A stretch of DNA of 64,000 nucleotides from Squalus acanthias (Eukaryota). The translations under genes were made by a program, and so were the position numbers. Below are positions 3,321 to 63,204 of this stretch, piece by piece. Every line of letters starts with the position of its first letter. Within the stretch, counting starts at the first letter, position 1. The notes beneath the pieces were generated by a model. It did no database searches and had not been told where the DNA came from. It saw only the letters and a program-made list of their open reading frames with translations. Location: assembly GCA_030390025.1 (NCBI GenBank), contig CM059431.1:144586001-144650000 (forward strand), read 5' to 3'.

Positions 3321-3334
3321 CTCCAACCTCCCTT

Positions 3335-4140
3335 GTTTGTACTACTCAGATTTATGAGTCAGCTCGCTGGCAGTTCCTACACTTACACTAGACGATACCG
3401 TGCTCCTCCACTACAAGTGATATCCTACACTTACACTGGAGTTGACTGTGCTCCTCCTGTACTTTTTATATTCTACCCCTACAGTAGAGATGACCGTGCT
3501 CCTCCTGTACTATTTATACCCTACAACCACAGTAGAGATGACTGTGCTCCTTCTGTACTATTTATATCCTACACCTACAGTAGAGATCACCGTGCTCCTC
3601 CTATACTTTTTATATCCTGCAACTACAGTAGAGATGACCGTGCTCCTCCTGTACTATTTATATCCTACACCCACAGTAGAGATGACCGTGCTCTTCCTGT
3701 ACTATTTATATTCCAGACCTACAGTAGAGATGACCGTGCTCCTCCTGTGCTATTTATATCCTACACCTACAGTAGAGATGGCCGTGCTCCTTCTGTACAA
3801 TTTTTTTATCCTAGATCTAGAGTAGAGATAACTGTGCTCCTCTGGTACTCGTGATAGCCTATATTTACACCAGAGGTGAGCAAACTCCTTCGGTACTAGA
3901 GGTTCGCTAAACATACAGAAGCGTGGACCAAGCTCCTCCACCACTAGTGATACTTCTACACTTAAACTAGCGGTGTCAGTGCTTCTCCGGTAAGAGTATT
4001 ACCCTACACTTGCAGTATAGGTGAACGTGCTACTCCAGTACTATTCGTATCCTACACTTACAATAGAATTCATATTTCTCCTACAATATTAGTGGCAACC
4101 CAACCTTACACAAGAGTTAAACATTCTCTGGAACTAGAAA
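3335..4140 (-). repeat. 48/49-bp tandem satellite (homogeneous 48-bp core ~3440-3810)
   Basis: Unit agtagagatgaccgtgctcctcctgtactatttatatcctacacctac; its reverse complement aligns to the 49-bp unit at 25.4-26.2 kb. Confidence 0.9.
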
Positions 4141-4145
4141 TACCA

Positions 4146-22599: not shown

Positions 22600-25500
22600 T
22601 TTCTTGTGTCCTCTAGTAAGTCTACCACTGGTGCTGCAAAACTGGTCAGTACTTGTGTTCCAGCAGTAGGTATTATACCAGTGCTGAAAAAGCAGAGTCC
22701 TCGCCAGTAGTGCATTAGATGGGTCTCCGTCAGTGCAACAAGAGTGGGGACTAGAACAGGAATAGAATCAGCTACAGCAATGGAAGAGCATTTTCACGTC
22801 TGGTGCTACTGCAGACAACGTATTACCAGAGGAGCACGGTCACATCTAGTGTATGTGTACGGGTACCAGTAGTTCCATAGAAGCAGTATCACCGCTGGTG
22901 TAAGTGAAGGGAACCACTAGTACCGCAAGACCACTTTCACCACCAGTGTAAGTGTATGGATACTGCTAGTACCGGAGGAGGACGGTCAGCTCTAGATTCA
23001 TAGAGTCATAGTTATACAGCACAGAAAGAGACCTTTCGGCCCATCGTGTCCGCGCCGGCCATCAAGCCCTCTCTATTCTAATCTCATTTTCCAGCAATTG
23101 GTCCGTAGACTTGTATGCGATGGCGTTTCAAGTGCTCAGCTAAATGCTTCTTGGATGCTGTGAGGGTTCCTGCCTCTAACACCCTTTCAGGCAGTGAGTT
23201 CCAGAATCCAACAACCCTTTGGGTGAAAAGGTTTTCCTCTAATTCCCTCTAAACCTCCCGCCCCTTAACTTGAAACTATGCCCCCTGGTTATTGACCCCT
23301 CTACTAAGGGGAAAAGATCCTTTCTTTCTACCCTATCTATGCCCTCATAACATTGCACACCTCAATCAGGTCCCCCCTCAGCCTTGTCTGCTCTAAGGAA
23401 AACAACCCCAGTTGTCCAGTCTCTCTTCATGGCTGAAGCGCTCAAGCCTAGGTAACATCCTGGTGAATCTCCTCTGCACCCTCTCCAATGCAATCACATC
23501 CTTCCGATAGTGTGGCGACCAGAACTGCACACAATATTCCAGCTGTGGCCTAACTAGCGTTCTGTACAGCTCCATCATTACATCCCTGCTCTTATATGCT
23601 ATGCCTCGGCTAATGAAGGGAAGTATCCCATATGCCTTTTTAACCACCTTATTTACCTGTCCTGTTGCCTTCAGTGATCTATGTAAATGCACACCAAAGG
23701 TCCCTCTGATCCACTGTCCTTCCTAGGGTCCTGCCATTCATTGTGTATCCCCTTGCCTTGTTAGTCCTCCAAAAATGCATCACCTCACACGTTCCATTTG
23801 CCACTGTTCTGCCCATCTAACCAACGCTTCTATTTCGTCCTGTAGCCTGAGGCTTCCCTCCTCGCTATTTACCACCCCACCAATTTTCGTGTCAGCTGCA
23901 AACATACTGATCATACCTCCTACATTCATATCTACATCATTAATGTACACTATAAACAGCAAAGGACCCAGCACCGATCCCTGCGGTACACCACTGGACA
24001 CAGGCTCCCAGTTACAAAAACAACCTTCGAACATCACGCTCTGCCTCCTGCCACTGAGCCAATTTTGGATCCAATGTGCTAAATTGCCCTGGATCCCATG
24101 GACTCTTACCTTCTTGACCAGTCTCCCATGCGGGACTTTGTCAAAAGCCTTACTGAAGTCCATGTAGACCACATCAGCTGCACTACCCTCATCCACACAC
24201 CGAGTCATCCCCTTGAAAAAAATTATCAAATTGGTCAGACATGATCTCCCCCTGACATAGCCATGCTGACTATCCTTGGTTAATCCTTGCCTCTCCAAGT
24301 GGAGACTAATTCTTTCCCTCAGAAATGTTTTCTATAATTTCCCGACCACTGATATTAGGCTCACTGACCTGTAAATCCCTGGTTTCTCCCTGCTACCCTT
24401 CTTGAATAATGGTACTACGTTAGTTGTCCTCCAGTCTTTTGGCCACTCCACTGTGGCCAGAGAGGTTCTGAAAATTTGGGTCAGAGCCCCTGCAAACTCC
24501 TCCCTTGCCTCACACAGCAGCCTGGGATACATCTCGTCTGGGCCTGGTGATTTATCCACTTTTAAGCCGGATAAAACCGCTAGTACCTCCTCGCTCTCAA
24601 TACTAATTTGTTCAAGTATATCGCAATCCACCTGCCTGATTTCTATGCCTACATCGACCTTCTCCATCGTGAACACAGATGCAAAATATTCATTTAAAAC
24701 CTCACTTATTCTTTTGGCTCCACACACAGATTGCCACTTTGGTCCCTGATGGGCCCTACTCTTTCCCTGGTTATCCTCTATTCCTTAATATACTTATAAA
24801 TCACCTTGGGATTTTCCTTTATTTTGCCCGCCAGTGTAAATGTTCGCTGCCTCTAATAACAAAATGGCACTGCCACTACAAGTTTAACTGTATGGATACC
24901 ACTATTACAGGAGGAGTGCTGTCACTTCTAGTATAAGTGTAGAATATCACTAGTATCGAAGGAGTACTGGTCTCCTCTCGTGTAAGTGTAGGTGTACCAC
25001 TGCACCCAGTGGAGCAAGTTCACCTCTAATATAATTATGGGATTACCACTGCTTCAGGAGGAGCCCGGTCATCTCGAGTGTAAGTGTAGATGTAGCTCTA
25101 GTACCAGAGGAGCACGGTCAGCTCGTGTGTAATTGTAGGTAACCATTAATACCAGAAGAGCACTGTCACTACCATTGTAAGTGTGCGGTTACCACTACTA
25201 CCGGTGGAGCACGGTCAGCTCCAGTGTATATGTAGGGGTACCAGTCGTATACGAGAAGCAGGAGCACCGCTCGTGTAAGATTAGGGAACCGCCAGAACAG
25301 GACGTTCACGTTCAGCACTAGTCTAAGTGCAGGGGTATCGCTAGTACCGAAAGAGCAAGGTCACCTCGAGTGTAAGTGCAGTGTACCACTCGTACTGAAT
25401 GAGCACTGTCTCCTCTAGTGTAAGTGTAGGGGTACCACTAGTACCAGGGGATCACTGTCTCCTCTAGTGTAAGTGCAGGGGTACCATTAGTACTGAAGGA

Positions 25501-26300
25501 GCACTGTCTCCTCTAGTGTAAGTGCAGGGGTACCATTAGTACGGAAGGAGTACTGTCTCCTCTAGTGTAAGTGTAGGGGCTCCACTAGTACTGAAGGAGC
25601 ACTGTCTCCTCAAGTGTAAGTGCAGGGCTACCACTAGTACTGAAGAAGCACTGTCTCCTCTAGTGTAAGTGCAGGGGTACCACTAGTACTGAAGGAGCAC
25701 TGTCTCCTCTAGTGTAGGTGCAGGGGTACCACTAGTACCAGGGCATCACTGTCTCCTCTTGTGTAAGTGCAGGGGTACCAATAGTACTGAAGGAGCACTA
25801 TCTCCTCTAGTGTAAGTGCAGGGGTACCACTAGTACGGCAGGAGCACTGTCTCCTCTAGTGTAATTGCAGGGGTACCGCTAGTACTGAAGGAGCACTGTC
25901 TCCTCTATTGTAAGTGTAGGGGCTCCACTAGTACTGAAGGAGCACTGTCTCCTCTAGTGTAAGTGCAGGGCTACCACTAGTACTAAAGAAGCACTGTCTC
26001 CTCTAGTATAAGTGCAGGGGTACCACTAACACTGAAGGAGCACTGTCTCCTCTAGTGTAAGTGCAGGGGTACCACTAATACTGAAAGGGCACTGTCTCCT
26101 CTAGTGTAAATGCAGGTGTACCGCTAGTACCAAGGGAGCACTGTCTCCTCTAGTTTAAGTGTAGGTGTACCAATTGTACCTGAGAAGCACGGTCACCTCG
26201 AGTTTAAGTGTAGGGAGCCCACAAGTACAGGGGGAGCACTCTCACCTCTAGTTTAACTGTGGGTTTACGACAACTACCAGAGGATTACAGATACCTTTAA
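22600..26300 (+). repeat. 49-bp tandem satellite (homogeneous core ~25400-26160; degenerate flanks; interrupted by CR1 at 22996-24835)
   Basis: Unit cctctagtgtaagtgcaggggtaccactagtactgaaggagcactgtct; cctctag at 25412, 25461, 25510 gives a period of 49. Confidence 0.93.
22996..24835 (-). mobile_element. CR1 ORF2 RT + 3' end, frameshifted
   Basis: KVDKSPGPDEMYPR, MDFSKAFDKVPH, GVPQGSVLGP, LVRPQLEYCVQFWSP in three ORF pieces. Confidence 0.9.
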
Positions 26301-26565
26301 TGCCGCATGTCTGCGGTCTTAACTAATACCGCAAGATTTGGTCACCGCCTGTTCTGGAGGGGTTGAAGCAATAAGATTAAGTCAAGGATAGGGCCAGGAC
26401 GTGTAGTGCTGGGGGAGTTGCCTTCACTGCTTCTGTTGTAAGAGGGTCAGCAGCAGTACCGGTAGATTGAACTCTCTAATTGTAAAGAATGTTTAATTGA
26501 GCATGTTGTTATTAAACTTTCCAATAACAATTTCTATTATTTCTTATCAGACAATAATAACTTGT

Positions 26566-32725: not shown

Positions 32726-33369
32726 TGTGAACTTCTTCCCTTCCCTTTCAGGCAATGCATTCCAGATCGTAACAGCTCAGTATGTAAAAAAAAAAAATCC
32801 TCATCTCCTCGCTGGTTCATTTGCCAAATACCTTAATTTTGTAGCCGTGCTTAGCAACGCTCCTGCCAGTGGAAACGATGCTTTCTTATTTAATCAAAAC
32901 CCCTCATAATTTTGAACACATCTCCCCATAACATTCTCTGCTCGATGGAGAACGATCCCAGTTTCTGGCCATGTCGACAGTTTTCAAGTCTTTCACCCGC
33001 TGTGGTGAAGGCCCCGCCCGACACCTCACATCCGGGTACATCCAGTTTCACATTGATCTCTTTCTTGCTCAGTTTGGGAGATTATTCTTTCATTGTTCTG
33101 TATAATGATCAATTTAAGGTTAAGCAAAATACATTATTCGTATGTTAACCAATTCATTTTTGAAATGGAACCAATCTCTTCATTTAACGATTTATCGAAT
33201 CGCTGTTAATATCATTTCACCAATCGAAATTTAAAAGCGGAAACAATATACAATTGATACTTTATTAATTCAAAGTAGAGCTCTCACCATCTATTGATTT
33301 GTTCGACACTTCTCTCTCTCCTTCTCTTCATGGCCCCGCTCTCCTATTCCCTTTCTTTCTGTCGGATAA

Positions 33370-33850
33370 CACAATCTGCCAGATCCTAGTCCCATGGGTT
33401 TCCACACTCTGCCAAATCCCAGTCCCATGGGATCCCAAACTCTGCCAGTTCCCAGTCCCACGGGTTCCCGCACTCTGCCAGTTCCCAGTCCCACGGGTTC
33501 CTGCACGCTGCCAGATCCCAGTCCCAAGGGATCCCAAACTCTGCCAGATCCCTGTCCCATGGGTTCCCGCACTCTGCCAGATCCCAGTCTCACGGGTTCC
33601 CGCACTCTGCCAGATCCCAGTCTCACCGGTTCCCTCATTCTGCCGGATCCCAGTCCCACGGGTTTCCTCACTCTGCCGTATCCCAGTCCCACGGGTTCCC
33701 TCACTCTGTCGGATCCCAGTTCCACGGGTTCCCGCAATCTGCCAGATCCCAGTCCCACGGGTTCCGTTAATCTGCCGGATCCCAGTTCTACCGGTTTCCA
33801 CTCTCTGCCGGATCCCAGTTCCACGGGTTCCCTCACTCTGCCGGATCCCA
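33370..33850. repeat. 33-bp minisatellite (~14.5 units)
   Basis: Unit ctctgccagatcccagtcccacgggttcccgca; gives 11-aa repeat ORFs on both strands. Confidence 0.93.
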
Positions 33851-34959
33851 ACCCCGGTTGACGATCTACCTTTGTTCGAGAATTGTCCCTCGAATATCAG
33901 GGTAATAGAATACAATGATATCTATTATTGTTGTCAGAAGAATTGTTGGGCTTACCTCATTTGGACTGCGTGCACACTTCTGGCAACCTACTAATAGAAA
34001 GGATATTTCTGCACTTTATATGTGACACAGCTCAGTCCCAGAGCTTCCAGGGATTCACAATACCAGCTTTTGAAGAAATTATAGAAAATCCAGCTTTCTT
34101 TCTTTATAAAAGAGGAAATCCCCAGGTGATTTAATGTCAGTTTTAATGTTACGAGGATAATGCACACATGGCTCAAATTCTTCACTGTGGCAAGGAGTTC
34201 AATCATAAAGATCTACAAGTACAAAATGTGAAATTAAGCGCTAGACGGGAAGACGGGCGGGACTTTTCAGCTCACTGGGTAACTGTATTCTGTGTGTTAT
34301 TTACTGAATTACCAGGAGGGTCATTCGGCACAAACCTATTTATCCGCTTCTGGAGTTGACAACTATGTTATCGAAAGTTTATGACATGACAAACATAACC
34401 TTCTGTAAACAAACTGCAACATCCATGTGCTGCGTAACACAGGAAAAGGTAAACTGATGAACTTCAATCTGAGGAGTTTAACAATCAAGATATACAACGA
34501 AGAAAGCAAGAACATTGTCTTGAGAGAACCGAATAGCATCAAAAACATACCTTACTTGGAGTACACCTGCAACTATAATTACTGCCGTTTACGAGGCAAT
34601 AATAGGAACTCTATTAATTAACAGTATGTTGTTAAATTGCCGAATTAACCTAATCATCCTCACAGTTGTTAATGGGATAATCTGCGGTGTCTGTCCCTAC
34701 TTTAACAAATCCAAATCTGACATCCAAGTTATATGCGCTGTATTAAAGTTCACACAGAGGAATTCTGTCCTGCTGTGTTGAAGGGGCCCTACATACAATG
34801 CACAAAATCTCCTGTGTTGTGAATCCAAGTATCTTACCAAATCGTGGAGATGCCGCAGTTGGAAAGCTCGCTTTTAATATCCTGAAAGATAAATACTGAG
34901 GAATCAGACGAATCCTTCATTCACTACTGCAACTCCTCACTGAGGAATTGGAATAAAGT

Positions 34960-43785: not shown

Positions 43786-43790
43786 GTAAC

Positions 43791-44005
43791 TGACGTAATA
43801 AAGACTCACTACGCACTTGAACATAAAGCAAGGTTTTAATCAACTTGTAACAAAACATGGAGGTCTGGTTAGCAGTCACTAGCTTCCTGTTTCCAGATTG
43901 TCTCTGCCCAAGGTGGGCCCATGCCTGAGTATTTATACTCCCTGGACGGCGCCCCAGCTGGCCGCCCAGTAGTACTTCCTGAGTTGTTACTTGCGATTTA
44001 TGACA
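43791..44005 (-). repeat. 3' LTR of Gypsy A
   Basis: 210/215 identical to 48079-48293. Confidence 0.95.
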
Positions 44006-44043
44006 TTCTTCCTCCCTAAAAGGTTTGGAAGTCCAGTCTTCCT

Positions 44044-47000
44044 TTAACGGACTAGGCGGACCAGAAATAGCCGCAGACGTTTAGCTCTCTGCTTGTGACT
44101 GGAAGGCACGTCTCCCCGGACCGTGTCCTGGTCCCTGGGGCGCTTGGCCCATCCCGGTAAGTCAGTAGAGTCCGCGTCATCTTGATCATCCTGTGGAGGA
44201 CTGGGAATATCATGACTCCGGGTGCGGGTCCCCACAGGTGCTGAGCTGGCCTCATCCCGGGTCATGGCTGGAGATTGTCCGGCATCCTGGTTTCGGGTGG
44301 CCATCCTACGGGGAGCGTCCAGCTCCCTGAGTTGATCCGGTAGTTTTGCCGGCAGATCCCCCGATGTCCCAGGCGGGGCGTCATTTACATAGGGGTGCGG
44401 AGTATTGATATCATTGTCGGGGGATCCTTCATCATTCGGGCCCGTGTGACTGGTTGGGCAGGGAGCTAGATCTCGGAGCGAGACGGTGGTCTCCCGGCCA
44501 TCAGGGTACCGTATATGCGCATACGTGGGGTTTACCTCCATTAACTCCACCTCGTCAATGAGAGGGTCGTTTTTGGCAGACCGGACGAACCTCCGGAGTA
44601 GTACCGGGCCTGGAGCCACCAACCATGACGGTAGAGACGTCCCATGTGTAGAGCGACGCCGGAATTTGAAGAATCGCTCATGAGGCGTGACATTAGTAGA
44701 TGTGGAGAGAAGAGACCTGATAGAGTGTAACGCGTCGGGGAGCACCGTTTCCCACTGCTGGTCCGGCAGGTTGCGTGACCTTAGTGCCAGACAGACAGCG
44801 TTCCAGATGATGGCATTGTATCGTTCAACCTGTCCGTTACCGATTGGGTGATATGGTGTCGTCCTACTTGAGGCGATTCCCCGTTGGGAGAGATAACTTT
44901 TAAGTTCACTCGACACTGCTATCAGTGTGGATAAAATTGGCCGTCCCGCAAAGGGAAAAGACCTGATCGAGGCATTTAATTACCGTAGAGGTAAGCATAT
45001 TAGGGCAGGGGAAGGCGAAGGGAAAGCGTGAATACTCGTCCACCAGCGTAGGTAGGTAGGTGTTCTTTGTCGACGAAGGCAATGGCCCTTTAAAGTCTAT
45101 GCTGAGCCTCTGCATAGGCTGCATTGCATGTATGAGTAAGCCATCTGATGGGCGAAAGAATTGTGGTTTCAATTCTGCACAAATCCTACAGGAGGAGCAT
45201 GTTTTCTTTACGTCCTCGGTTGAAAATGGTAGATTTTTGGAGCGCACAAAGTGCAACATGCGGGTCAGACCAGGATGGCATAAGTCCATATGCAAATCCG
45301 CCAGAGTCGACGTTGACATTGAGGAGCAAAATGCCCGTGTGAAGGTATCTGGGGCCACGTTCTGTTTGCCGGGTCGGTAACAGATAGTATATCCAAAGGC
45401 AGCCAGCTCCATCCTCCAGAGTTGAATTTTATTATTTTTGATTTTCGTGCGCCTCTGGTTATCCAACATGAAGGCCACAGAGCGCTGGTCAGTTATAAGC
45501 ATAAAATGACGCCGAGCAAGAAAATGACCCCATTGGCGTACAGCCTCGATGATGGCCGTAGCCTCCTTCTCGACGGGGGGGTAATGGAGCTCGCTACCCT
45601 GCAAGGTTCTGGATAGGAATGCCACGGGTCGGCCACCTTGATTCAAGGTAGCAGAGATCCCCACCTCCGATGCATCGCATTCGACCACAAAAGGAAGATT
45701 TTCGTCAATGGAGCGAAGCGTGGCTTTCTCCAGCTGTCGTTTGAGGAGGTTGAAGGCAGAAATAGCCGTAGCTTCCAATGGGAAAGACTTCGCATGGAGC
45801 CGGGGCTGTATTTTATCGGAGAAGTGTGGTATCCATTTTGCGTAATAAGCAAACATGCCAAGTGCCCGACGAAGAGAGCCGAGGTTCGTTGGGGGAGGGA
45901 GCTCCTGAAGTGGACGAAGTCGCTCTGGGTCCGGTTTAATAACACCGTTGCCCACCCAGTAGCCAAGAATGTTCACCGATGGCACCGACTTCACCGATTT
46001 GGATTCGTTTAACGTTAAGTGGCGACGGCGGAGTACGTCAAAAAATCTCTGAAGATTGGCGTCATGCTCCTTTTGATCATGGCCGGCAATAGTGATATTG
46101 TCTAAATACGGAAAGGTATCCGTCAAGTTCTCTTGCCGGACTAGGCCATCCATGGCCCGTTGGAAGACGGCCACCCCATTGGTGACCCCGAATGGAAGGC
46201 GGTGAAACTGGAAAAGCCGACCATTGGCCTCAAAGGCCGTATACTTCTTGTCAGAGTCTTGCAGTGGCACCTGATGGTACGCGCTTTTTAAATCGAAGGT
46301 CGAGAATACCTTGTATTTGGCAAGGTTGTTGACCATGTCATCTATGCGTGGCAGCGGGTAGGCATCCAGATCGGTATATAGATTAATAGTCTGCGAATAA
46401 TCGATACACAGACGTTTTTTATGTTGTTTTAAGGGATTCCTCACGATGACGACCTGAGCCCGCCAGGGAGATGAACATGGCTCGATAATATCGTCGACTA
46501 AAAGGCGAGAGATTTCCGCCTCAATAAACGCTCGATCATCTTGGCTAAAGCGCCGCGATTTTGTGGCTATGGGTTTACAGCGGGGGGGGGGCGAAGATTG
46601 GCAAATAGGGAGGGTTCACCGAGTAAGGCCGCCGAGAGTGCACAAAACGGCACCTTAGAAATGGTAAGCTCCGGCCTTGACCCTCCAAACTCAAAAGTGA
46701 TCTTCTTGTGCTGCTTCTGGAAGTCCTGTCCCAGAAGCACATCGCTGCATAAGTTTGCAAGTACTCCGAGCCGGGTGGAGAGATACGTGCGGCCGTTGAG
46801 GATGAGGTTGACCAGACAGAAGCCAGAAGAATTGGTGGTCAGAGTCGTCAGAGCCATTGCAATCTCCCTGTCCGAGGGATAAATGTGCAGTTTTAACCTG
46901 TTGACAGCCCGCTTACTAATGAAGCTGTCAGAGCTGCAGGAGTCGATTAGCGCGCTTAGAGTGTGCCCATTTACTGAAACCTTCGTGGCTGCATGGGACA

Positions 47001-47978
47001 AACTTTGGGGAAAAACAGCCGTGATGGGAGGAGGGGCAATTTTCCCTTCGGCAACTGTAGCCTTAACAGTAGTTCTTGGGGGAGGAGCAGCTCCATAGAT
47101 AGCAGCTGTGAAGCTAACAGGAGCTCTCGACCGGTATACTTTAGAGGAGAGGCCTTTCTTGTTAGCAAAGGCCCGTGACTGGCATACCTTGGAAAAGTGT
47201 CCTTTCTTGCTGCAATGATTGCAGGTCACATTACGAGCCGGGCAAAATTTTCTGTGATGGCACGCCCCTCCACAAAAGAAACACTTTCTTCCTGATTGCC
47301 AGGATGCTGCTAGGGCGGGGTCGTCATCAGCGAAGGCCTCTAGGGTAGGGTCGTCGTCTGTTAGAGTAGAGTCAACATCAGTGGGGGCATCCGCCCGAGA
47401 CCTACCGAAAGTTCATTAAAGGAGATAGCCGCCGCCTGTGCACGTGGTGGGAGATAAGTGTCTGCATTTTTCTTGGCCAAGTCCAAGGAACACGCCTGGT
47501 CATAAGCAGCCCGTAAATTGAGGATTTTATTTTCCAGCAGGCGCTGACGTATAAAAGGGGACGCGATTCCATTGATAAAGGAATCGCGGATTAGTTCCTG
47601 TTGATACTGTTCAGCTGAAACTGCTTTAAGGTTACAATCCTTGCTGAGCCTGCGAAGTTTCTGGAGAAATTCATCGAGTGATTCCCCAGGCTGCTGCCGA
47701 GTTGTGGCCAGTAGGTGTCGAGCAAAGATTTCATTTGGGGACTTGACATATAGCTGCTGTAAGATTTCGATAGCAGTGTCATAGTCTATACAGTCCTCAA
47801 TATAATCATACACATGAGGGGACACGTAGTTGATAAGCATTCGTAACTTATTAGGGACATCCGCCCCACATTCTTCAAGAAAGTTGCTAAAGGTACGAAA
47901 CCAATGCTTCCATACCTTTGCTGCCACAGGTGCATTCGGGTCCAGGTCGAGACGAGCGGGTCTAAGGAGTTTTTCCAT
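44044..47978 (-). pseudogene. Gypsy A gag-pol with three frameshifts (~47400, poly-G 46582-46591, ~44915)
   Basis: Gag MEKLLRPARLDLDPN, CCHC knuckles, PR ALIDSCS, RT FDLKSAYHQ/YLDN, RH VECDAS, IN HHCC + IDFKG/GQVER. Confidence 0.92.
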
Positions 47979-48078
47979 GATGGATCAGTTTCTTGCCCAA
48001 GTTCCCTTCTGTGGTTCGAGTTGCAGCTGGTTGTTCCGAATCATCCAAAGCGTGGAGACGATATCAAGTTGATTAAAT

Positions 48079-48293
48079 TGATGTAATAAAGACTCATTAC
48101 GCACTTGAACATAAAGCAAGGCTTTAATCAAATTGTAACAAAACATGGAGGTCTCGTTAGCAGTCACTAGCTTCCTGTTTCCAGATTGTCTCTGCCCAAG
48201 GTGGGCCCATGCCTGAGTATTTATACTCCCTGGACGGCGCCCCAGCTGGCCGCCCAGTAGTACTTCCTGAGTTGTTACTTGCGATTTATGACA
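48079..48293 (-). repeat. 5' LTR of Gypsy A
   Basis: TG..CA ends; minus-strand TATAAATA and ATTAAA. Confidence 0.95.
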
Positions 48294-48417
48294 GTAACTG
48301 TAACCTCCGATACTCCCTACACTTAGACTAGAGGTGACCGTGCTGCTCCGGTACTAGTGGCACCTACAGTTGCACGAGAAGTGACCACCCTCCTATGGTA
48401 TAGGTGGTACACAACAT

Positions 48418-52910: not shown

Positions 52911-53439
52911 CAGTGAATTTCCCCAGCGCTATGAGGGCTCATCATGGACTTTCCCTGCCGGTGGTTCACTGGACCTGACTCGGCTGGCGCGACCCTCTGA
53001 CGCCCGATTCTGCCCCGCTATATATTGTAAGTTTGATAGTTGAGAGCTGTTATTCTGTCCGCTCACCACATCCTCCCAGCCCGAAGGCCGCCGACTCAAT
53101 GCCCATTTCATGTTATTGTTTGGACTACAGGAAGCCCTACGATGCTTTGCTCTGAGTTTTATGGATCCACTGCCAGTGGACTGGGTTCTCGTGACTGAAT
53201 TAGGCACGTTACATAACTACATATGATTGACCAATAAAACGGGGGCTCTCGGTTTTCCAACCACCAGGCGGGGTTTCAGTGTAAACTCATTCTTTCCCCC
53301 TGGCAGGTGAAGCGCATGCGCTCTTTATAATGAACACTCGGGTATTCAGCATAACACCGCGAGCTGGAGCTGGCCTCATCCAAATGGTGGAGTGTTCTCC
53401 ACATCTGGATCATTCCCATCACGATCCCGTGATCCACGA

Positions 53440-56403
53440 ACAAAAAACAAAGGGCCAAACTAATTCATAAAAAATGTGAGCATAAAAAAAGCCTGAGGGT
53501 TTTATACCTTAATGCGAGAAGCATCAGGAACAAGGTAGATGAATTAGCTGTGGAAATAGAGGTTAATAATTATGATCTAATTGGGATTACGGAAACATGG
53601 TTGCAGGGTGAGCAGGGCTGGGAGCTTAACATACAGGGGTATTCAGTATTTAGGAAGGATCGACAAAAAAGAAAGGGAGGAGGGGTAGCATTGCTGGTAA
53701 AAGAGGGGATAAATGCAATTGAAAGGAAGGATATTAACTCAGTTAATACAGAATCTATATGGGTGGAGCTAAGAAATAACGAGGGGCGAAAAACATTAAT
53801 AGGAGTGGTATATAGGCCTCCAAATAGTAAAATAGAGGTTGGGGAGGGCATCACGAGGGAAATTAGAGAAGCGTGCAATAAGAGCACAGCTGTCATCATA
53901 GGTGACTTTAACTTACATATAGATTGGACTAGCCTAATCAGTAAAAATAATGAGGAGGAGGAATTCCTTGAGTGTTTAAGTGATAGTTATCTGGATCAAT
54001 ATGTCGAGGAACCAACTCGGGAACAGGCTATATTGCACTGGGTACTGTGCAATGAGAAGGGACTAATTAGTAATCTTGTTGTACGGGGACCCTTGGGTCA
54101 GAGCGATCATAACATGATCGATTTCTCACTCGAAATGGAGAGCGAAGAAATTGACTCAGAGACTAAGGTCCTGAATTTAAACAAGGGGAATTATGATGCC
54201 ATTAGACGGGAACTGAGTAGGTCTGATTGGACAACGTTCCTGGGAGGACTGGAGGTAGATAAACAATGGCAAGCATTTAAAGGTAGAATGACAAAATTGC
54301 AAAAATTGTTTATACCAATCTGGCATAAAAGGAAATCTAAAAAGGTGACTCAACCGTGGATAACAGGGGAAATTAGAGACAGCATAAAATCCAAAGATAG
54401 GGCGTATAAAATAGCCAAAAAAAGCGCCAGAGCGGAAGATTGGGAACAGTTTAAGATAGAGCAAAGGAGGACAAAGGGCTTAATCAAGAGGGGCAAAATA
54501 GCTTACGAAAGCAAGCTGGCGGAAAATATAAAAACTAACTCCAAAAGCTTTTATAAGTATATCAAGAGGAAAAGACTGGTGAAAACCAAAGTTGGTCCAT
54601 TGCAGTCAGATACGGGGGAATATATAACGGGAAATAAGGAAATGGCAGACCAACTAAATGCATACTTTGGGTCAGTCTTCACGAAGGAAGACACAAAAAA
54701 CCTCCCTGGGATATCGGGAAAAATAGGGACATTGGCAAAGGAAGAACTGACGCAACTCAATATCTCTAAGGATATGGTGTTAAGGAAGCTAAAGGGATTG
54801 AAGGCGGACAAATCCCCAGGGCCTGATAACATGCATCCTAGGGTACTGAAGGAGGTGGCCCTAGAGATAGCGGATGCACTAAGTATGATTTTTCAGAATT
54901 CATTAGACTCGGGAACAGTGCCCATGGATTGGAGGGTAGCTAACGTTACCCCACTATTCAAAAAGAGGGGTAGGGAAAAAGCAGGTAATTACAGACCTGT
55001 AAGCCTTACATCAGTTGTGGGCAAAATGCTGGAGTCCATCATTAAGGATGAAATAGCGGAGCACTTAGCAAATGGGGACAGGATAGGACAGAGTCAACAT
55101 GGATTTACAAAGGGTAAATCGTGCTTGACTAATCTATTGGAATTTTTTGAGGGAGTAACTGGTAAAATAGATGGGGGAGAGCCAGTAGATGTGGTGTACC
55201 TGGACTTCCAAAAGGCCTTCGACAAGGTCCCACATAAAAGATTAGCATGGAAAATTGAAGCTCATGGGATAAAGGGGAAAGTATTGACGTGGATAGAGAA
55301 CTGGCTGTCAGATAGAAAACAGAGAGTTGGAATAAACGGCTCATTTTCTGAATGGCAGGCAGTAACAAGTGGGGTACCACAGGGATCTGACCTGGGTCCC
55401 CAGCTGTTCACAATTTACATTAATGACCTGGATCAGGGAGTCGGATGCAGCATTTCCAAATTTGCAGACGACACTAAACTAGGAGGGGGGGTGGGCTCAG
55501 AGGAGGAGACCAGGAAGCTCCAGAGCGATTTGGACAGACTGGGTGATTGGGCGGATAAATGGCAGATGCACTATAATGTGGACAAGTGCGAAGTTATCCA
55601 CCTTGGGTGCAGGAACGGGAGGGCAAATTATTATTTAAATGGCAATAAATTGGGAGAGGGGGAAGTACAGAGAGACCTGGGTGTTCTTGTACACCAGTCA
55701 CTGAAGGCGAGCATGCAGGTGCAACAGGCGGTCAAGAAGGCAAACGGTATGCTGGCCTTCATAGCAAAAGGGTTGGAATACAGGAACAGGGATACCTTGC
55801 TGCAGCTGTACAGGGCACTGGTGAGACCACACCTCGAGTACTGTGTACAGTTTTGGTCGCCTCATCTGAGGAAAGATGTTCTTGCCATGGAGGGGGTGCA
55901 GCGGCGATTCACCAGGCTGATACCAGGAATGGTGGGATTGACCTATGAGGAGAGACTATGTAGTTTAGGGATGTACACACTGGAGTTTAGAAGATTGAGA
56001 GGGGACCTCATAGAAGTGTATAAAATTCTGACAGGTCTAGACAGACTAGATGCAGAAGGAATGTTTCCCTTGGCGGGTGAGAACAGAACTAGAGGACATA
56101 ATTTAAGGATAAGGGCTAAACCATTTAGGACAGAAATGAGGGTGAATTTCTTCACTCAGAGGGTGGTGAACCTGTGGAACTCATTGCCACAGAGGGCAGT
56201 GTACGCCAGCTCATTAAATATATTTAAGAGGGAATTAGATATATTTCTACAGGCAAAAGGGGTTAAGGGTTACGGAGAGAAGGCGGGGACGGGATACTGA
56301 ATTGGAGGATCAGCCATGATCTCATTAAATGGCGGAGCAGGCTCGAAGGGCCGGATGGCCTACTCCTGCTCCTATCTTCTATGTATCTATGTATCTATGT
56401 ATG
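53440..56403 (+). mobile_element. Young CR1 LINE, truncated just upstream of ORF2
   Basis: Complete open EN+RT ORF, 3' UTR, (TATGTATC)n tail; no ORF1 upstream. Confidence 0.95.
53481..56300 (+). CDS. CR1 ORF2: APE endonuclease + reverse transcriptase (frame open upstream of the called GTG at 53550)
   Basis: LRVLYLNARSIRNKVDEL, GITETW, VYRPP, GDFN, SDH, KSPGPD, LDFQKAFDKV, FADD. Confidence 0.92.
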   Translation, partial: HKKSLRVLYLNARSIRNKVDELAVEIEVNNYDLIGITETWLQGEQGWELNIQGYSVFRKDRQKRKGGGVALLVKEGINAIERKDINSVNTESIWVELRNNEGRKTLIGVVYRPPNSKIEVGEGITREIREACNKSTAVIIGDFNLHIDWTSLISKNNEEEEFLECLSDSYLDQYVEEPTREQAILHWVLCNEKGLISNLVVRGPLGQSDHNMIDFSLEMESEEIDSETKVLNLNKGNYDAIRRELSRSDWTTFLGGLEVDKQWQAFKGRMTKLQKLFIPIWHKRKSKKVTQPWITGEIRDSIKSKDRAYKIAKKSARAEDWEQFKIEQRRTKGLIKRGKIAYESKLAENIKTNSKSFYKYIKRKRLVKTKVGPLQSDTGEYITGNKEMADQLNAYFGSVFTKEDTKNLPGISGKIGTLAKEELTQLNISKDMVLRKLKGLKADKSPGPDNMHPRVLKEVALEIADALSMIFQNSLDSGTVPMDWRVANVTPLFKKRGREKAGNYRPVSLTSVVGKMLESIIKDEIAEHLANGDRIGQSQHGFTKGKSCLTNLLEFFEGVTGKIDGGEPVDVVYLDFQKAFDKVPHKRLAWKIEAHGIKGKVLTWIENWLSDRKQRVGINGSFSEWQAVTSGVPQGSDLGPQLFTIYINDLDQGVGCSISKFADDTKLGGGVGSEEETRKLQSDLDRLGDWADKWQMHYNVDKCEVIHLGCRNGRANYYLNGNKLGEGEVQRDLGVLVHQSLKASMQVQQAVKKANGMLAFIAKGLEYRNRDTLLQLYRALVRPHLEYCVQFWSPHLRKDVLAMEGVQRRFTRLIPGMVGLTYEERLCSLGMYTLEFRRLRGDLIEVYKILTGLDRLDAEGMFPLAGENRTRGHNLRIRAKPFRTEMRVNFFTQRVVNLWNSLPQRAVYASSLNIFKRELDIFLQAKGVKGYGEKAGTGY

Positions 56404-58400: not shown

Positions 58401-58591
58401 TTTAAAGCTGAGATTTTTTTTAACCAAAGGTATTAAAGGATCTGGAGCAAAGGGATGCAAACGGAGATAGGTCGCAGAGCTCATTGAATGGTAGAAAGGC
58501 TCGAGGAGTTAAATGGACTGCCCCTGTTGCTATTCTCATTGTCTAATGTTCAGAGACGATTGTGGAGAAGAGAATCGCGATTTTAAAGCAG

Positions 58592-58664
58592 CGCCCGAAC
58601 AGGGACTTGAACTCAGGACATAGACATTAAAAGTCTGATACTCTACCGACTGAGCTATCCGGGC
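58592..58664 (-). tRNA. tRNA-Lys(UUU), degenerate, probable pseudogene
   Basis: GCCCGGATAGCTCAGTCGGTAGAGTATCAGACTTTTAATGTCTATGTCCTGAGTTCAAGTCCCTGTTCGGGCG (73 nt). Acceptor stem and A/B boxes are canonical; the anticodon 3' strand and T stem are mispaired. Confidence 0.85.
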
Positions 58665-58723
58665 TCACAAAAGGATTTTCCTTGGCTGCCGTGCATCAAT
58701 GCACCCTCTACTAATTCAATGTT

Positions 58724-58917
58724 TGTCGTAAGAATGAGCCTTACGCGTGGTGAACTTAAAGTAAGCTTTAATCCACTAAAAAGGTGCTACATACAAAAGA
58801 GGTCTTACTCTATGCCTCTCCAGGATCCAACGGAGCAGCACAGTATTTATCCTGGACTAATCACAGGAAGTGATGTAATAAAGTTCAAGTCACAGGAAGC
58901 TGTATTGTGTTGCCACA
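58724..58917 (-). repeat. 3' LTR of Gypsy B
   Basis: 190/194 identical to 63011-63204. Confidence 0.95.
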
Positions 58918-59377
58918 TTCTCCCCCCCCCAAAAGATTAGGAGGCCGGGATGAAGTTCGAGTCACAGGAAGCTGTATTGTGTTACCACATTCTCCCTCCA
59001 TTTCGTAGCCGCTGGACGAGGGAGAGCCGCACCCGTTTGGGTTCTCGTAGCGGTAGAGGGCCCTTAGCCCGTTTACCCGCCACGGGCCGTGGACCAGAGT
59101 CCGAGTGATCCAGCCCGCTCTGTGAGGGGTCAGGACGATCCTGACTGTGTACTGGTGCCCGAACGGGTGTCGGGCAGGGCTGTGATAGATCCGTTTCCGA
59201 GCGTATGGTACGGGGTGGATCGTGGCTGCGCGTGCGAGCCCCGATCGGCTCAAAATCAGTCTGCCCCAGGTCGGCACGCTGGAGTGAGGTACCAGCCGGC
59301 GTCAGATCCAGATCGTGATGAGAGGCACCTGGCGAGCCCAGAGATGTGCCTGGTACAATATCATCCCCTGGTGTCCC

Positions 59378-62300
59378 TCAATGTTTCGGCGGGCAGGGAG
59401 CCAGATCCCGTAATGACACGGTAGATTCCCGACCGTCAGGATACCGAATATAGGCGTAGGTAGGGTTGACGTCAGTGAGCTCAACCTCATCTACCAGGGG
59501 GTCATTCTTAGACGCCCGAACATATCTTCGGAGTAGCACTGGTCCCGGTGCAGTCAGCCACGACGGGAGAGATATCCCATAGGATGAGCGACGCTGAAAT
59601 CGGAAGAACCGTTCATGAGGCGTCGTATTTGTGGCGGTCGAAAGGAGGGACCGTGTGGGGTGTAATGCGTCTGGAAGTACTGCTTCCCATTGCTGGTTGG
59701 GTAGGCCCCGAGATCTCAAAGCCAGACGTACCGCATTCCAGATGATAGCGTTAAAACGCTCGACTTGCCCATTCCCGACCGGATGATAAGGCGTCGTTCT
59801 GCTGGCAGCAATACCCCGTTCCGAGAGATAGGCCTTGAGTTCTCCTGACATAAAAGAAGGGCCCCGATCCGAATGAACATAGGATGCCATGCCACAGAAA
59901 GCAAATACCTGCTCAAGGCAGCTGATAACCGTGGTCGTCAGCATATTGGGGCAGGGAAAGGCAAACGGAAAACGGGAATACTCATCGACCATGGTCAATA
60001 GATAAGTGTTGCGAGTTGAAGAGGGCAACGGCCCCTTAAAATCGATGCTAAGCCGTTGCATTGGCTGGGTCGCATATATGAGTATACCACCCGAGGGGCG
60101 GAAAAACTGAGGTTTCAATTCCGCACAGACTCTGCAGTCCGAGCACATCTTCTTTACATCCCCGGTAGAGAATGGGAGATTTCGGGACCGCACGAAGTGT
60201 AGCATGCGAGTAACGCCCGGATGACACAACCCATCATGGATGTCTACGAGCGTAGAGGGTGCCATGGCGGAGCAGAATGCTCGTGTGAGATAATCCGGAG
60301 CCACATTCTCCTTGCCAGGTCGATAGTGGATGGTGTAACCAAAAGAGGCCAATTCCAGCCGCCAAAGCTGGATTTTATTATTTTTAATTTTGGTCCGTTT
60401 TCGATTATCGAGCATGAAGGTGACCGATCGCTGGTCCGTGATTAAGGTAAAGTGCTGGCGAGCTAGGAGATGACTCCACTTCCGTACTGCCTCTATGATG
60501 GCTGTAGCTTCTTTCTCGACTGGAGGATAATGTAGCTCAGCCCCTTGAAAAGTCCTGGACAAAAATGCCACCGGACGACCTTCCTGATTCAGAGTGGCCG
60601 AGATCGCCACCTCCGAGGCATCACACTCAACAACAAAAGGAAGACTCTCATCGATGGAGTGAAGAGCCGCTTTCTCCAACTGTTTTTTCAGGAGGTTAAA
60701 GGCTGCAACAGCCGCTGTGTCTAGTGGGAATGTGCTGGCCTTCAGTAGAGGTTGGATTCGGTCCGAGAAGTTAGGAATCCATTTAGCATAGTATGCAAAC
60801 AGGCCGAGGGCCCGGCGCAAGGAGGCCGGATTCTTAGGTGGCGGGAGTTCTTGGAGTGGGCGAAGCCTTTCAGGGTCAGGTTTAATGATGCCATTGCCCA
60901 CACAATAGCCAAGGATGTTGATGGTTGGTTGTGACTCAATGGATTTAGCCGTATTTAATGTCAAATTACGGTGCTGGACTGCATCCCCAAATCGTTGGAG
61001 ATTGGCGTCATGTTCCCGCTGATTGCGACCTGCGACAGTAATATTGTCCAGATAAGGAAACGTATCCTTTAAGTCTTCCTGTTTGACCAGGTCATCCATT
61101 GCTCGCTGGAAGACAGCCACTCCATTAGTGACCCCAAAGGGGAGACGACAAAATTGATACAGCCGTCCATTGGCTTCAAAGGCCGTATACTGCTTGTCTG
61201 AGACCTTCAAGGGTACCTGATGATAGGCACTTTTCAGATCATATGTTGAGAACACCGTGTACTCAGCCAGTTTATTAACCATATCATCGATGCGCGGCAA
61301 TGGGTATGCGTCCAAGTCCGTATATTGATTGATGGTCTGTGAATAGTCAATGCACAGCCGCTTCTTGTGAGGTTGTAGAGGGTTCTTAACAATAACGACC
61401 TGGGTGCGCCATGGCGACGAACAAGGCTCGATGATATCCTCTGCTAAAAGCCGAGAAATCTCAGCCGCAATAAAAGACTGGTCTTCCTGACTGAAACGTC
61501 GTGACTTTGTTATAATCGGTTTGCATCGAGGAGGGATACTGGTAAACAGTGAGGGTTCATCCAGTGAAGCTGCTGACAATGCACAGAACGGTAATCGAGG
61601 TCGTATATTAGAAATAGTGAGTTCAGGTTTGGATCCGCCGAACTCAATGGTGAGCTTCTTATGCTGCTTTTGAAAATCTAGCCCTAAGATAAGATCACTA
61701 CATAAGTCCTTGAGCACCGAAAGCCGGGTGGAGGGATACCTGTGACCATTAAGTGTTATTTCAACCATACAAAAGCCAGAAATTCTGGTATTAAGTGATG
61801 ACTGAGCCATCGCAATTGCCTGGTCCGATGGGAAAACATGTAGCTTTAACTCTGCAACAATCTGTTCCCTAATGAAACTATCAGTGCTACCTGAGTCAAT
61901 TAAGGCATCTAAAGTATGTCCATTAATTGATGCTTTTGTAGCTGCATGGAATAGGTTCTGAGGACAAGCAGCTGTAATTGGTGTCGTTGCACAAAGAGTG
62001 GCTGAAACTCTAGGTGTGTTTCTTCGAGAGAAAACCCGAGAGGAAGCACGATAGATTTTAGCCGGAACATCTTGATAGGCCCTTACCGGGGCAGTTCGGT
62101 AGGACTTAGCTTGATAAGCCCTCGTAGAGGCTCTTGATAGGCAAACCTTTGCAAAATGACCCTTTTTGTTGCAATGACTGCAAAACGCATTGCGAGCAGG
62201 GCAGAATTTCCGAGGGTGAAACTCATCACCACAAAAGAAGCATTTCTTAGATTGCCAAGAGGCTGCCACAGTGGGGTCATCATCCTCTTCATCAGTGAAG

Positions 62301-62932
62301 TCATCAGATTGATCGTCAGGGATAAAGTCCTCCCTAATAGAGTTCACCTGTGGCCTCTTAAATTGCCTGACTGTAGTTAAGGCAGCAGACCGAGGTCTGG
62401 GCACTGTATAAAGGTCTGCATTTCTTTTTGCCAGATCTAGAGAGCAAGCCATGTCATATGCTCTCTGAAGCTCAAGTGTCTTACTTTCCAGTAGACGCTG
62501 GCGTATAAATGGGGAGGCAAGCCCGCAGATGAAAGCATCACGGATCATTTCTTCACGGTACAGCTCAGCTGAGGCCGCCTGAAATTTACAGTCCATACTA
62601 AGTCTGCGAAGCTCTTGGAGGAATTTATCAATGGATTCCTCCAGCCCTTGTTGGGCTGTAGCTAGTAGATGTCTGGCATAGACCTCATTCGGTGTCTTAG
62701 TATATAGTCTTTTAAGCATCCGAATTGCCTCCTCGTAACTGCCCCATTCCTCGACATACTGAAATACATTCGGGGTGACACAGTTGATGAGTATCCGCAA
62801 TTTTGAGTCATCATCAGACTTGCAATATTCGAGAAAATTGTCAAACGTGCGATACCAGTGTTTCCACACCTTACCGGCTGCTGGGGTGTTTGGGTCCAAG
62901 TCAAGACGCGATGGTTTAAGGATGTTTTCCAT
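59378..62932 (-). CDS. Gypsy B single-ORF Gag-Pol polyprotein (1184 aa)
   Basis: Two CCHC knuckles, PR ALIDSGS, RT YDLKSAYHQ/YLDN, RH VECDAS/EKE/TDQ, IN H-H-C-C and D(IDFKG)-D(HSDRG)-E(GQVER); no chromodomain. Confidence 0.96.
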   Translation of the reverse strand: MENILKPSRLDLDPNTPAAGKVWKHWYRTFDNFLEYCKSDDDSKLRILINCVTPNVFQYVEEWGSYEEAIRMLKRLYTKTPNEVYARHLLATAQQGLEESIDKFLQELRRLSMDCKFQAASAELYREEMIRDAFICGLASPFIRQRLLESKTLELQRAYDMACSLDLAKRNADLYTVPRPRSAALTTVRQFKRPQVNSIREDFIPDDQSDDFTDEEDDDPTVAASWQSKKCFFCGDEFHPRKFCPARNAFCSHCNKKGHFAKVCLSRASTRAYQAKSYRTAPVRAYQDVPAKIYRASSRVFSRRNTPRVSATLCATTPITAACPQNLFHAATKASINGHTLDALIDSGSTDSFIREQIVAELKLHVFPSDQAIAMAQSSLNTRISGFCMVEITLNGHRYPSTRLSVLKDLCSDLILGLDFQKQHKKLTIEFGGSKPELTISNIRPRLPFCALSAASLDEPSLFTSIPPRCKPIITKSRRFSQEDQSFIAAEISRLLAEDIIEPCSSPWRTQVVIVKNPLQPHKKRLCIDYSQTINQYTDLDAYPLPRIDDMVNKLAEYTVFSTYDLKSAYHQVPLKVSDKQYTAFEANGRLYQFCRLPFGVTNGVAVFQRAMDDLVKQEDLKDTFPYLDNITVAGRNQREHDANLQRFGDAVQHRNLTLNTAKSIESQPTINILGYCVGNGIIKPDPERLRPLQELPPPKNPASLRRALGLFAYYAKWIPNFSDRIQPLLKASTFPLDTAAVAAFNLLKKQLEKAALHSIDESLPFVVECDASEVAISATLNQEGRPVAFLSRTFQGAELHYPPVEKEATAIIEAVRKWSHLLARQHFTLITDQRSVTFMLDNRKRTKIKNNKIQLWRLELASFGYTIHYRPGKENVAPDYLTRAFCSAMAPSTLVDIHDGLCHPGVTRMLHFVRSRNLPFSTGDVKKMCSDCRVCAELKPQFFRPSGGILIYATQPMQRLSIDFKGPLPSSTRNTYLLTMVDEYSRFPFAFPCPNMLTTTVISCLEQVFAFCGMASYVHSDRGPSFMSGELKAYLSERGIAASRTTPYHPVGNGQVERFNAIIWNAVRLALRSRGLPNQQWEAVLPDALHPTRSLLSTATNTTPHERFFRFQRRSSYGISLPSWLTAPGPVLLRRYVRASKNDPLVDEVELTDVNPTYAYIRYPDGRESTVSLRDLAPCPPKH

Positions 62933-63010
62933 GATGGGTGATTCCCTGGATCCTTAGTTCCGAGTTCGTCCAAAAAGTTTGAGTGCGAAGTTTTTCAAAG
63001 TTGTTTAAAT

Positions 63011-63204
63011 TGTCGTAAGAATGAGCCTTACGCGTGGTGAACTTAAAGTAAGCTTTAATCAACTAAAAAGGTGCTACATACAAAAGAGGTCTTACTCTAT
63101 GCCTCTCCAGGATCCAACTGAGCAGCCCAGTATTTATCCTGGACTAATCACAGGAAGTGATGTAATAAAGTTCAAGTCACAGGAAGCTGTATTGTGTTAC
63201 CACA
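63011..63204 (-). repeat. 5' LTR of Gypsy B
   Basis: TG..CA ends; followed on the element strand by a non-tRNA PBS. Confidence 0.95.

Follow-up and report, generated by a model that had tools for sequence, protein, structure and literature searches.

Tf1 of Schizosaccharomyces pombe has been shown to self-prime through RNase H cleavage of a self-complementary LTR segment (PMC7175516, PMC10085805, PMC4600332). The primer is reported to be the first 11 nt of the mRNA, which RNase H releases by cutting between bases 11 and 12 (PMC7175516), and the junction is described as a "pretzel" of three duplexes in which each flank of the PBS pairs with the LTR downstream of the primer (PMC10085805). Self-priming has already been proposed outside the Tf1/sushi group, as a prediction for plant Tcn1 chromoviruses and for the TAR (Houba, Osr-1) group of Ty1/copia elements, where at least 10 nt of the LTR are reported to be complementary to a region that starts 0-5 nt past the 5' LTR (PMC6317226). 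Among Gypsy elements self-priming is tied to chromoviruses in the literature examined, and a search leaving aside subscription journals, Repbase and GyDB listed none that describes self-priming for an animal Gypsy clade outside the chromoviruses.

Here we analysed 64,000 nt of the forward strand of Squalus acanthias contig CM059431.1 (GCA_030390025.1, positions 144,586,001-144,650,000; hereafter the window), taken from a 3.7-Gb assembly. The window carries two Gypsy elements, A and B, both on the minus strand. Like Tf1/Tf2 of S. pombe, Tj1 of S. japonicus, Tosmo/Tcry and Tf1/sushi generally, these elements and their relatives have a PBS that lacks TGG and is complementary to an upstream LTR segment, and they have the Ty3/Gypsy domain order; with Tcn1 and TAR they share the signature of an LTR complementary to the post-LTR region. 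They differ from Tf1/sushi in having neither a chromodomain nor a Tf2-type SH3 domain, in an RT-RH that falls outside the chromovirus branch, in the absence of a detectable leader-side pretzel duplex (a U5-side helix being significant in A, subfamily A' and B only), in a pairing LTR segment (the arm) that has a poly(A)-type hexamer at its end and possibly lies inside the RNA, and in an RT that mostly carries YxDN. Tcn1 and TAR are chromovirus or copia elements of plant hosts, whereas the S. acanthias clade is non-chromoviral Gypsy.

Elements A and B and their LTR/PBS junctions

Element A occupies 43791-48293 (-), and LTR comparison delimits a 5' LTR at 48079-48293 and a 3' LTR at 43791-44005 (215 bp each, TG...CA, 5 differences between them), flanked by the target site duplication (TSD) GTTAC at 43786-43790 and 48294-48298. 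The gag-PR-RT-RH-IN coding region at 44044-47984 (-), recognized by its Pfam domains and devoid of a chromodomain, is split into four open pieces in this copy, and a polypurine tract (PPT) at 44006-44017 (-) is followed by AA and then by the TG of the 3' LTR. The 5' LTR ends ...TCA at 48079 and continues as A-TTTAATCAACTTG (48078-48065), in which 48078 is an unpaired spacer and 48065-48077 (-), positions +2 to +14 past the CA, form the PBS position. The complement of the PBS, here considered a candidate self-primer, lies in the LTR at 48123-48135 (-), where it matches at 12/13 positions; the 3' LTR copy at 43835-43847 matches at 13/13. The arm stops 44 nt before the LTR end, closing with the poly(A)-signal hexamer ATTAAA at 48123-48128. 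The description of this junction given by a sequence-only reading of the window, with no TGG and a PBS complement 44 nt from the LTR end, thus proved correct in both coordinates and letters. A TATAAA box at 48220-48225 (-), 102 nt 5' of the 3' end of the arm, is a putative promoter; if it is used, the RNA would start about 60 nt 5' of the arm. All four host families (A, A', B and a further one, C) have a TATA-like box, located 83-102 nt upstream of where the arm ends.

The single mismatch in the arm of A, at 48132, is private to the window copy, and the other top-scoring A copies pair at 13/13 in 29 of 29 cases. These copies belong to the 30 best of 944 candidate loci and are hence biased to young insertions; a separate pattern tally of the other copies gave 28 plus one spurious match. 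The fold of an A family copy had a z-score of -3.7, equalled by 1 of 200 shuffles, and the decayed window copy reached only z = -1.6. The pattern GATTAAA-N25-50-CAATTTAANC had 3452 matches in the genome versus 165 for the reversed control. The LTR/PBS pairing of A is not due to chance.

Element B occupies 58724-63204 (-), with 194-bp LTRs that differ at 4 positions (5' LTR 63011-63204, with its arm at 63054-63064; 3' LTR 58724-58917), the TSD AACAT and a single gag-pol ORF at 59378-62953 (-) encoding 1184 aa from the ATG with PR-RT-RH-IN, in which Pfam found neither a chromodomain nor a Tf2-type SH3 domain. The pairing claimed earlier for B holds for the family, where 28 of the 29 copies outside the window pair at 11/11; the PBS position of the window copy (62999-63009 (-)) is complementary at only 10/11.

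The genome-wide junction pattern search exposed family C, the third in this host. Subfamily A' is older than A, its LTRs being mostly 94-97% alike, and carries C in the arm (23/30 copies) and G in the PBS (30/30) at the positions occupied by T and A in A. The two sister subfamilies thus differ by a C-G versus a U-A pair. The arm T of some A' copies is mostly later CpG decay: we considered such arm-T/PBS-G copies as inherited intermediates of primer-templated PBS repair and rejected this, since 5 of the 6 with a readable 3' arm keep C in the 3' LTR, which indicates that the change occurred after insertion.

Conservation of the pairing across families

A metagenome scan for relatives retained 80 of 564 loci, of which 31 included the gag start. 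Six near-duplicates (L066, L068, L090, L096, L115 and L123) and four loci with too little upstream DNA were left out; among these four, L076 and L080 showed the pairing when the other contig end was read, and L062 and L083 showed no junction. The remaining 21 loci together with A, A', B and C gave 25 junctions; the LTR ends of the 21 were set from both LTRs in 11 cases (5 with an exact TSD) and by eye in 10. No relatives were found in viral_contigs.

The PBS of tRNA-primed Gypsy elements starts with TGG and is complementary to a tRNA 3' end. TGG was present at none of the 25 clade junctions, whereas 7 of the 8 outgroup Gypsy junctions taken from this host genome have it, and the eight outgroup junctions pair with their own LTR at only 6-7 of 12 positions. 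Over positions +2 to +13, 23 of the 25 clade junctions pair with their own LTR at 11/12 or better and the remaining two at 10/12; dinucleotide shuffles averaged 6.7-8.4 of 12 and reached the observed pairing in at most 3 of 300 cases. Pairing at 11/12 between the arm of one family and the PBS of another was seen in 76 of 600 combinations, because related families have common arms. The 25 junctions hold 20 distinct PBS 12-mers, and 289 of the 300 cells are Watson-Crick pairs compared with 216±5 when columns were shuffled.

Changes were counted on a tree that included 22 junctions (L092, L110 and L136 of the 25 having no usable RT), with RT-RH identities among families of 43-98% (median 55%). 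For positions +5 to +10 the tree required 26 arm changes and 26 PBS changes, which collapse to 27 joint changes, indicating that nearly all changes in the arm and the PBS were paired. Pairing is significant out to +17 and falls to chance level past it. The helix starts at +2 in 24 of 25 junctions and at +3 in the other, and +1 is unpaired in 24 of 25, while the loop between arm and PBS ranges from 20 to 67 nt. The helix start is thus fixed despite the variable loop, as a primer's would be. LTR/PBS complementarity, whose loss across families would have spoken against the earlier proposal of self-priming, is preserved by arm and PBS changing in pairs, the helix keeping a constant distance from the LTR end. 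The bases right after the arm are also conserved, a purine followed by C in 22 of 25 families.

Two pairs do not vary. At PBS position +11 all 25 junctions have a G-C pair with the G in the arm, its neighbours covarying freely, and the A-U pair at +3 is likewise invariant in 25/25; both are possible recognition determinants. A separate motif, YTACCT, which on the opposite strand would read as a 5' splice donor, occurs 24-56 nt 5' of the arm end in 7 of the 25 LTRs (L061, L063, L067, L085, L089, L118 and L120) against 1.2 in shuffles, the rows not being independent; A, B and C carry AGACC at the place where these seven relatives have YTACCT.

Inner helices of the junction

In A the loop contains a weak hairpin P2 (CTTG/CAAG, 48104-48120 (-)) and a U5 hairpin P3 (48082-48101 (-)), and the sequence-only reading had proposed that the lineage self-primes through a multi-helix junction built from these. 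Summed over the 25 families, P2 amounts to 113 bp (shuffle mean 103, maximum 122) and P3 to 120 bp (mean 110, maximum 126), so that the summed lengths, like the loop energy, lie inside the shuffle range on its favourable side. P2 is missing from the centroid fold of an A family copy. For P3 the p values are about 0.01 each in A, A' and B; in C, the family that is nearer to A than B is in the RT-RH tree, this hairpin is broken (p = 0.85). Each hairpin covariation proposed between A and B comes down to one base pair. The form cgtaaT..Attacg given as a consensus for A mixes private states of its LTRs: all 29 other copies read CGTAGT on the 5' strand, a G.U pair.

A stem of 4 bp that begins immediately past the arm was found in 17 of 25 families (A not among them) when 11.3 were expected, which was reached in 4 of 1000 shuffles with kinship not counted, and a 3-bp version of the test over the same 25 junctions showed no enrichment (19 versus 18.4). 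A leader-to-loop duplex of the Tf1 type was not detected in the 25 junctions (143 versus 143.5 in shuffles). The central arm/PBS helix is the conserved feature, and the multi-helix junction is at most loosely conserved; of the earlier proposal, the absence of a tRNA-type PBS and the kept LTR/PBS complementarity stand, and the inner helices do not rise above shuffles.

Placement of the lineage

Elements A and B show the Ty3/Gypsy characters of PR-RT-RH-IN order by Pfam, TG...CA LTRs, a PPT and a 5-bp TSD. Neither of the chromodomain profiles PF00385 and PF24626 matched any of the 6 ORF pieces of A and B, whereas both were detected in 3/3 reference elements, in agreement with the earlier description of a lineage without a chromodomain. 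In an RT-RH tree, a long branch (SH-aLRT 100) sets 45 clade rows apart from the rest, and 7 chromovirus-type rows (three chromodomain-bearing fungal-type and four plant-type, the latter labelled by eye from motifs) form another branch (SH-aLRT 97). Grouping the clade with the 3 fungal-type rows was rejected (p-AU 0.0037, 29 rows), placing the clade outside the chromoviruses relative to IMG/VR references, which stand in for Tf1 and sushi themselves; the trees come from quick searches and have long branches. Judged by these results, the clade would work like Tf1 and yet not be a member of Tf1/sushi. The fungal-type references gave a 10-bp pairing candidate in L313 only and are a poor positive control for pairing.

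Within the host genome there were 16 chromodomain matches, none with pol nearby, and the best match to a chromovirus-type RT was 39%, which is why IMG/VR elements served as references. The 120 best homologs share 43-58% identity across residues 1-700, and those with a name come from crustaceans and cnidarians; a search of the ESM Atlas returned only retrotransposon Gag clusters. The lineage shares short LTRs and a single ORF of about 1200 aa with the Cigr-1 clade and is possibly identical with it. That clade has been reported from Ciona and molluscs, and a reference table in the same source files the Cigr-1 element under Mag (PMC6238403).

Reverse transcriptase motif

In place of YxDD, the RT catalytic site reads YLDN in A, in B (61043-61054 (-)) and in family C. 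Among the 120 best homologs the last residue is N in 89 and D in 24, with 7 unmatched, and a literature search found no paper on a YxDN motif in RT. An RT with YxDN is evidently functional, the families being young and present in high copy number. A tie between YxDN and self-priming was ruled out, as L082 and L106 have YLDD and keep the pairing.

A model for priming and its alternatives

The LTR edge is where the primer of the minus strand has to end, since the primer defines the end that integrase uses, and the element's own arm is the only sequence found that anneals there. We consider it probable (about 0.78), judging from sequence comparison, that the clade carries out Tf1-like self-priming of minus-strand DNA in a separate animal Gypsy lineage. 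The conserved arm/PBS complementarity is observed, and in vivo the LTR arm of the genomic transcript would fold onto the PBS as a helix of 10-17 bp ending 1-2 nt from the LTR edge. A cut at the 3' end of the arm, by analogy with Tf1 most likely made by the element's RNase H (whose acidic residues are invariant in 81 proteins), would leave a 3'-OH, from which RT would extend over the approximately 45 nt of LTR between the cut and the PBS. In A a cut after 48124, giving a 2-nt spacer, is favoured over one after 48123, because the +3 pair is invariant, the +2 pair is missing in one family and the other end of the element reads PPT-AA-TG; this left end is shared by A, B and 11 of 14 relatives examined, several of them near-duplicates. 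If the 3' LTR is cleaved for polyadenylation roughly 10-30 nt beyond ATTAAA, strand transfer would have a short repeat to work with. Unlike in Tf1, the arm may be internal to the RNA, as suggested by the upstream TATA-like box and by pairing out to +17; three sets of assembled RNA contigs (X1, X2 and X9) show no transcript ends. The primer could also be copied into the cDNA as PBS, which by analogy with Tf1 could drive the paired changes; about half of Tf1 cDNAs are reported to bear a primer copy as PBS (PMC11042837). The A' copies examined for such an intermediate gave a negative result.

Much of this evidence is also expected if an element-derived primer acts in trans or from the other end, whether from a co-packaged RNA (its 3' LTR arm) or as a small RNA derived from an LTR, with no folding and cutting in cis. 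Since the arm is present in both LTRs, such a primer would produce identical complementarity and covariation; the arm also stops at the poly(A) hexamer, near the RNA 3' end, and the inner helices that could position a cut in cis are poorly conserved. We nevertheless regard it as improbable: the local helix is short-range and stable (z = -3.7 in the family copy) and would take the PBS first, and the conserved bases 3' of the arm together with the enriched stem there fit a cleavage site in cis. The helix might instead serve to hide the poly(A) signal of the 5' LTR while some other primer is used, for which the HIV-1 poly(A) hairpin is a retroviral precedent. The arm ends in ATTAAA in 11 families, AATAAA in 4 and variants such as GTTAAA in 10, and only the 5' LTR adjoins a PBS, so the helix can form there alone and would hide the 5' signal wherever the arm ends in A(A/T)TAAA. 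That the 10 families without a canonical hexamer retain the helix, that L064 and L069 have their canonical hexamer in the loop outside it, that hiding needs no partner strand at +2/+3 of the LTR end, where one is present in 25/25, and that the primer is left unnamed make masking as the sole function more doubtful still. Masking is plausible as a side effect or second role of the helix, and it does not account for the fixed register at the LTR edge.

Least likely of all, and in our view very improbable, is a PBS bound by one half of a host tRNA or by some other small RNA of the host, with the LTR match being secondary. Half-tRNA primers are reported in Ty1/copia lineages (PMC6317226), and the sampled host tRNAs cover three isotypes, most isotypes falling outside the sample. 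The best PBS match to these (tRNA-Lys, -Cys or -Gly) was 4-6 nt, an Rfam search gave only a match with E = 5, and the 20 PBS 12-mers follow their own LTR, including the paired change between two subfamilies of one host. Self-priming in cis can be extended to a fuller scenario, to which we give tentative credence well short of even: self-priming would have evolved independently in a widespread non-chromoviral animal Gypsy lineage whose RT usually has Asn for the second catalytic Asp, the primer would be an internal LTR segment that doubles as poly(A) signal in a junction without a pretzel, and one helix would block 5' polyadenylation, set the primer end and fix a very short R.

If self-priming is correct, priming without tRNA either has several origins or is ancestral, and a second young, high-copy lineage using it would be available in a vertebrate-sized genome with relatives in invertebrates. 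This would bear on whether hairpin priming preceded tRNA priming, an open question raised earlier (PMC3601003), and the elements would presumably be without the site targeted by tRNA-derived fragments. For a test on a short RNA, the naturally covarying pairs already supply the disruptive and compensatory changes. The YxDN polymerase site poses a separate enzymology question.

Other features of the window and the genome

At about 58954-58992 (-) B has a private insertion of 39 nt that repeats AA and the beginning of the LTR directly after an upstream PPT-like purine run. It is missing from the B copies L144 and L145 and resembles the product of template switching at a cryptic PPT. L145 (G000:C1:566000-575600) itself consists of head-to-tail tandem B elements with single shared LTRs, a period of 4247 and 100% identity; such shared-LTR tandems are described for Tf1/Tf2 (PMC11042837). 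A tRNA-Lys-like sequence, identified by eye, adjoins the 3' LTR of B on its downstream side (about 58590-58665 (-)). Elsewhere in the host, L316 and L317 (G000:C19 and C4) belong to another high-copy Gypsy family with 241-bp LTRs and without TGG directly after the LTR. The window further contains a 955-aa endonuclease-RT ORF at 53433-56300 (+), assigned by inspection to a CR1-like LINE, and tandem arrays at 3327-4145, 24847-26368 and 33273-33899 with periods of 48, 49 and 33 bp, respectively.
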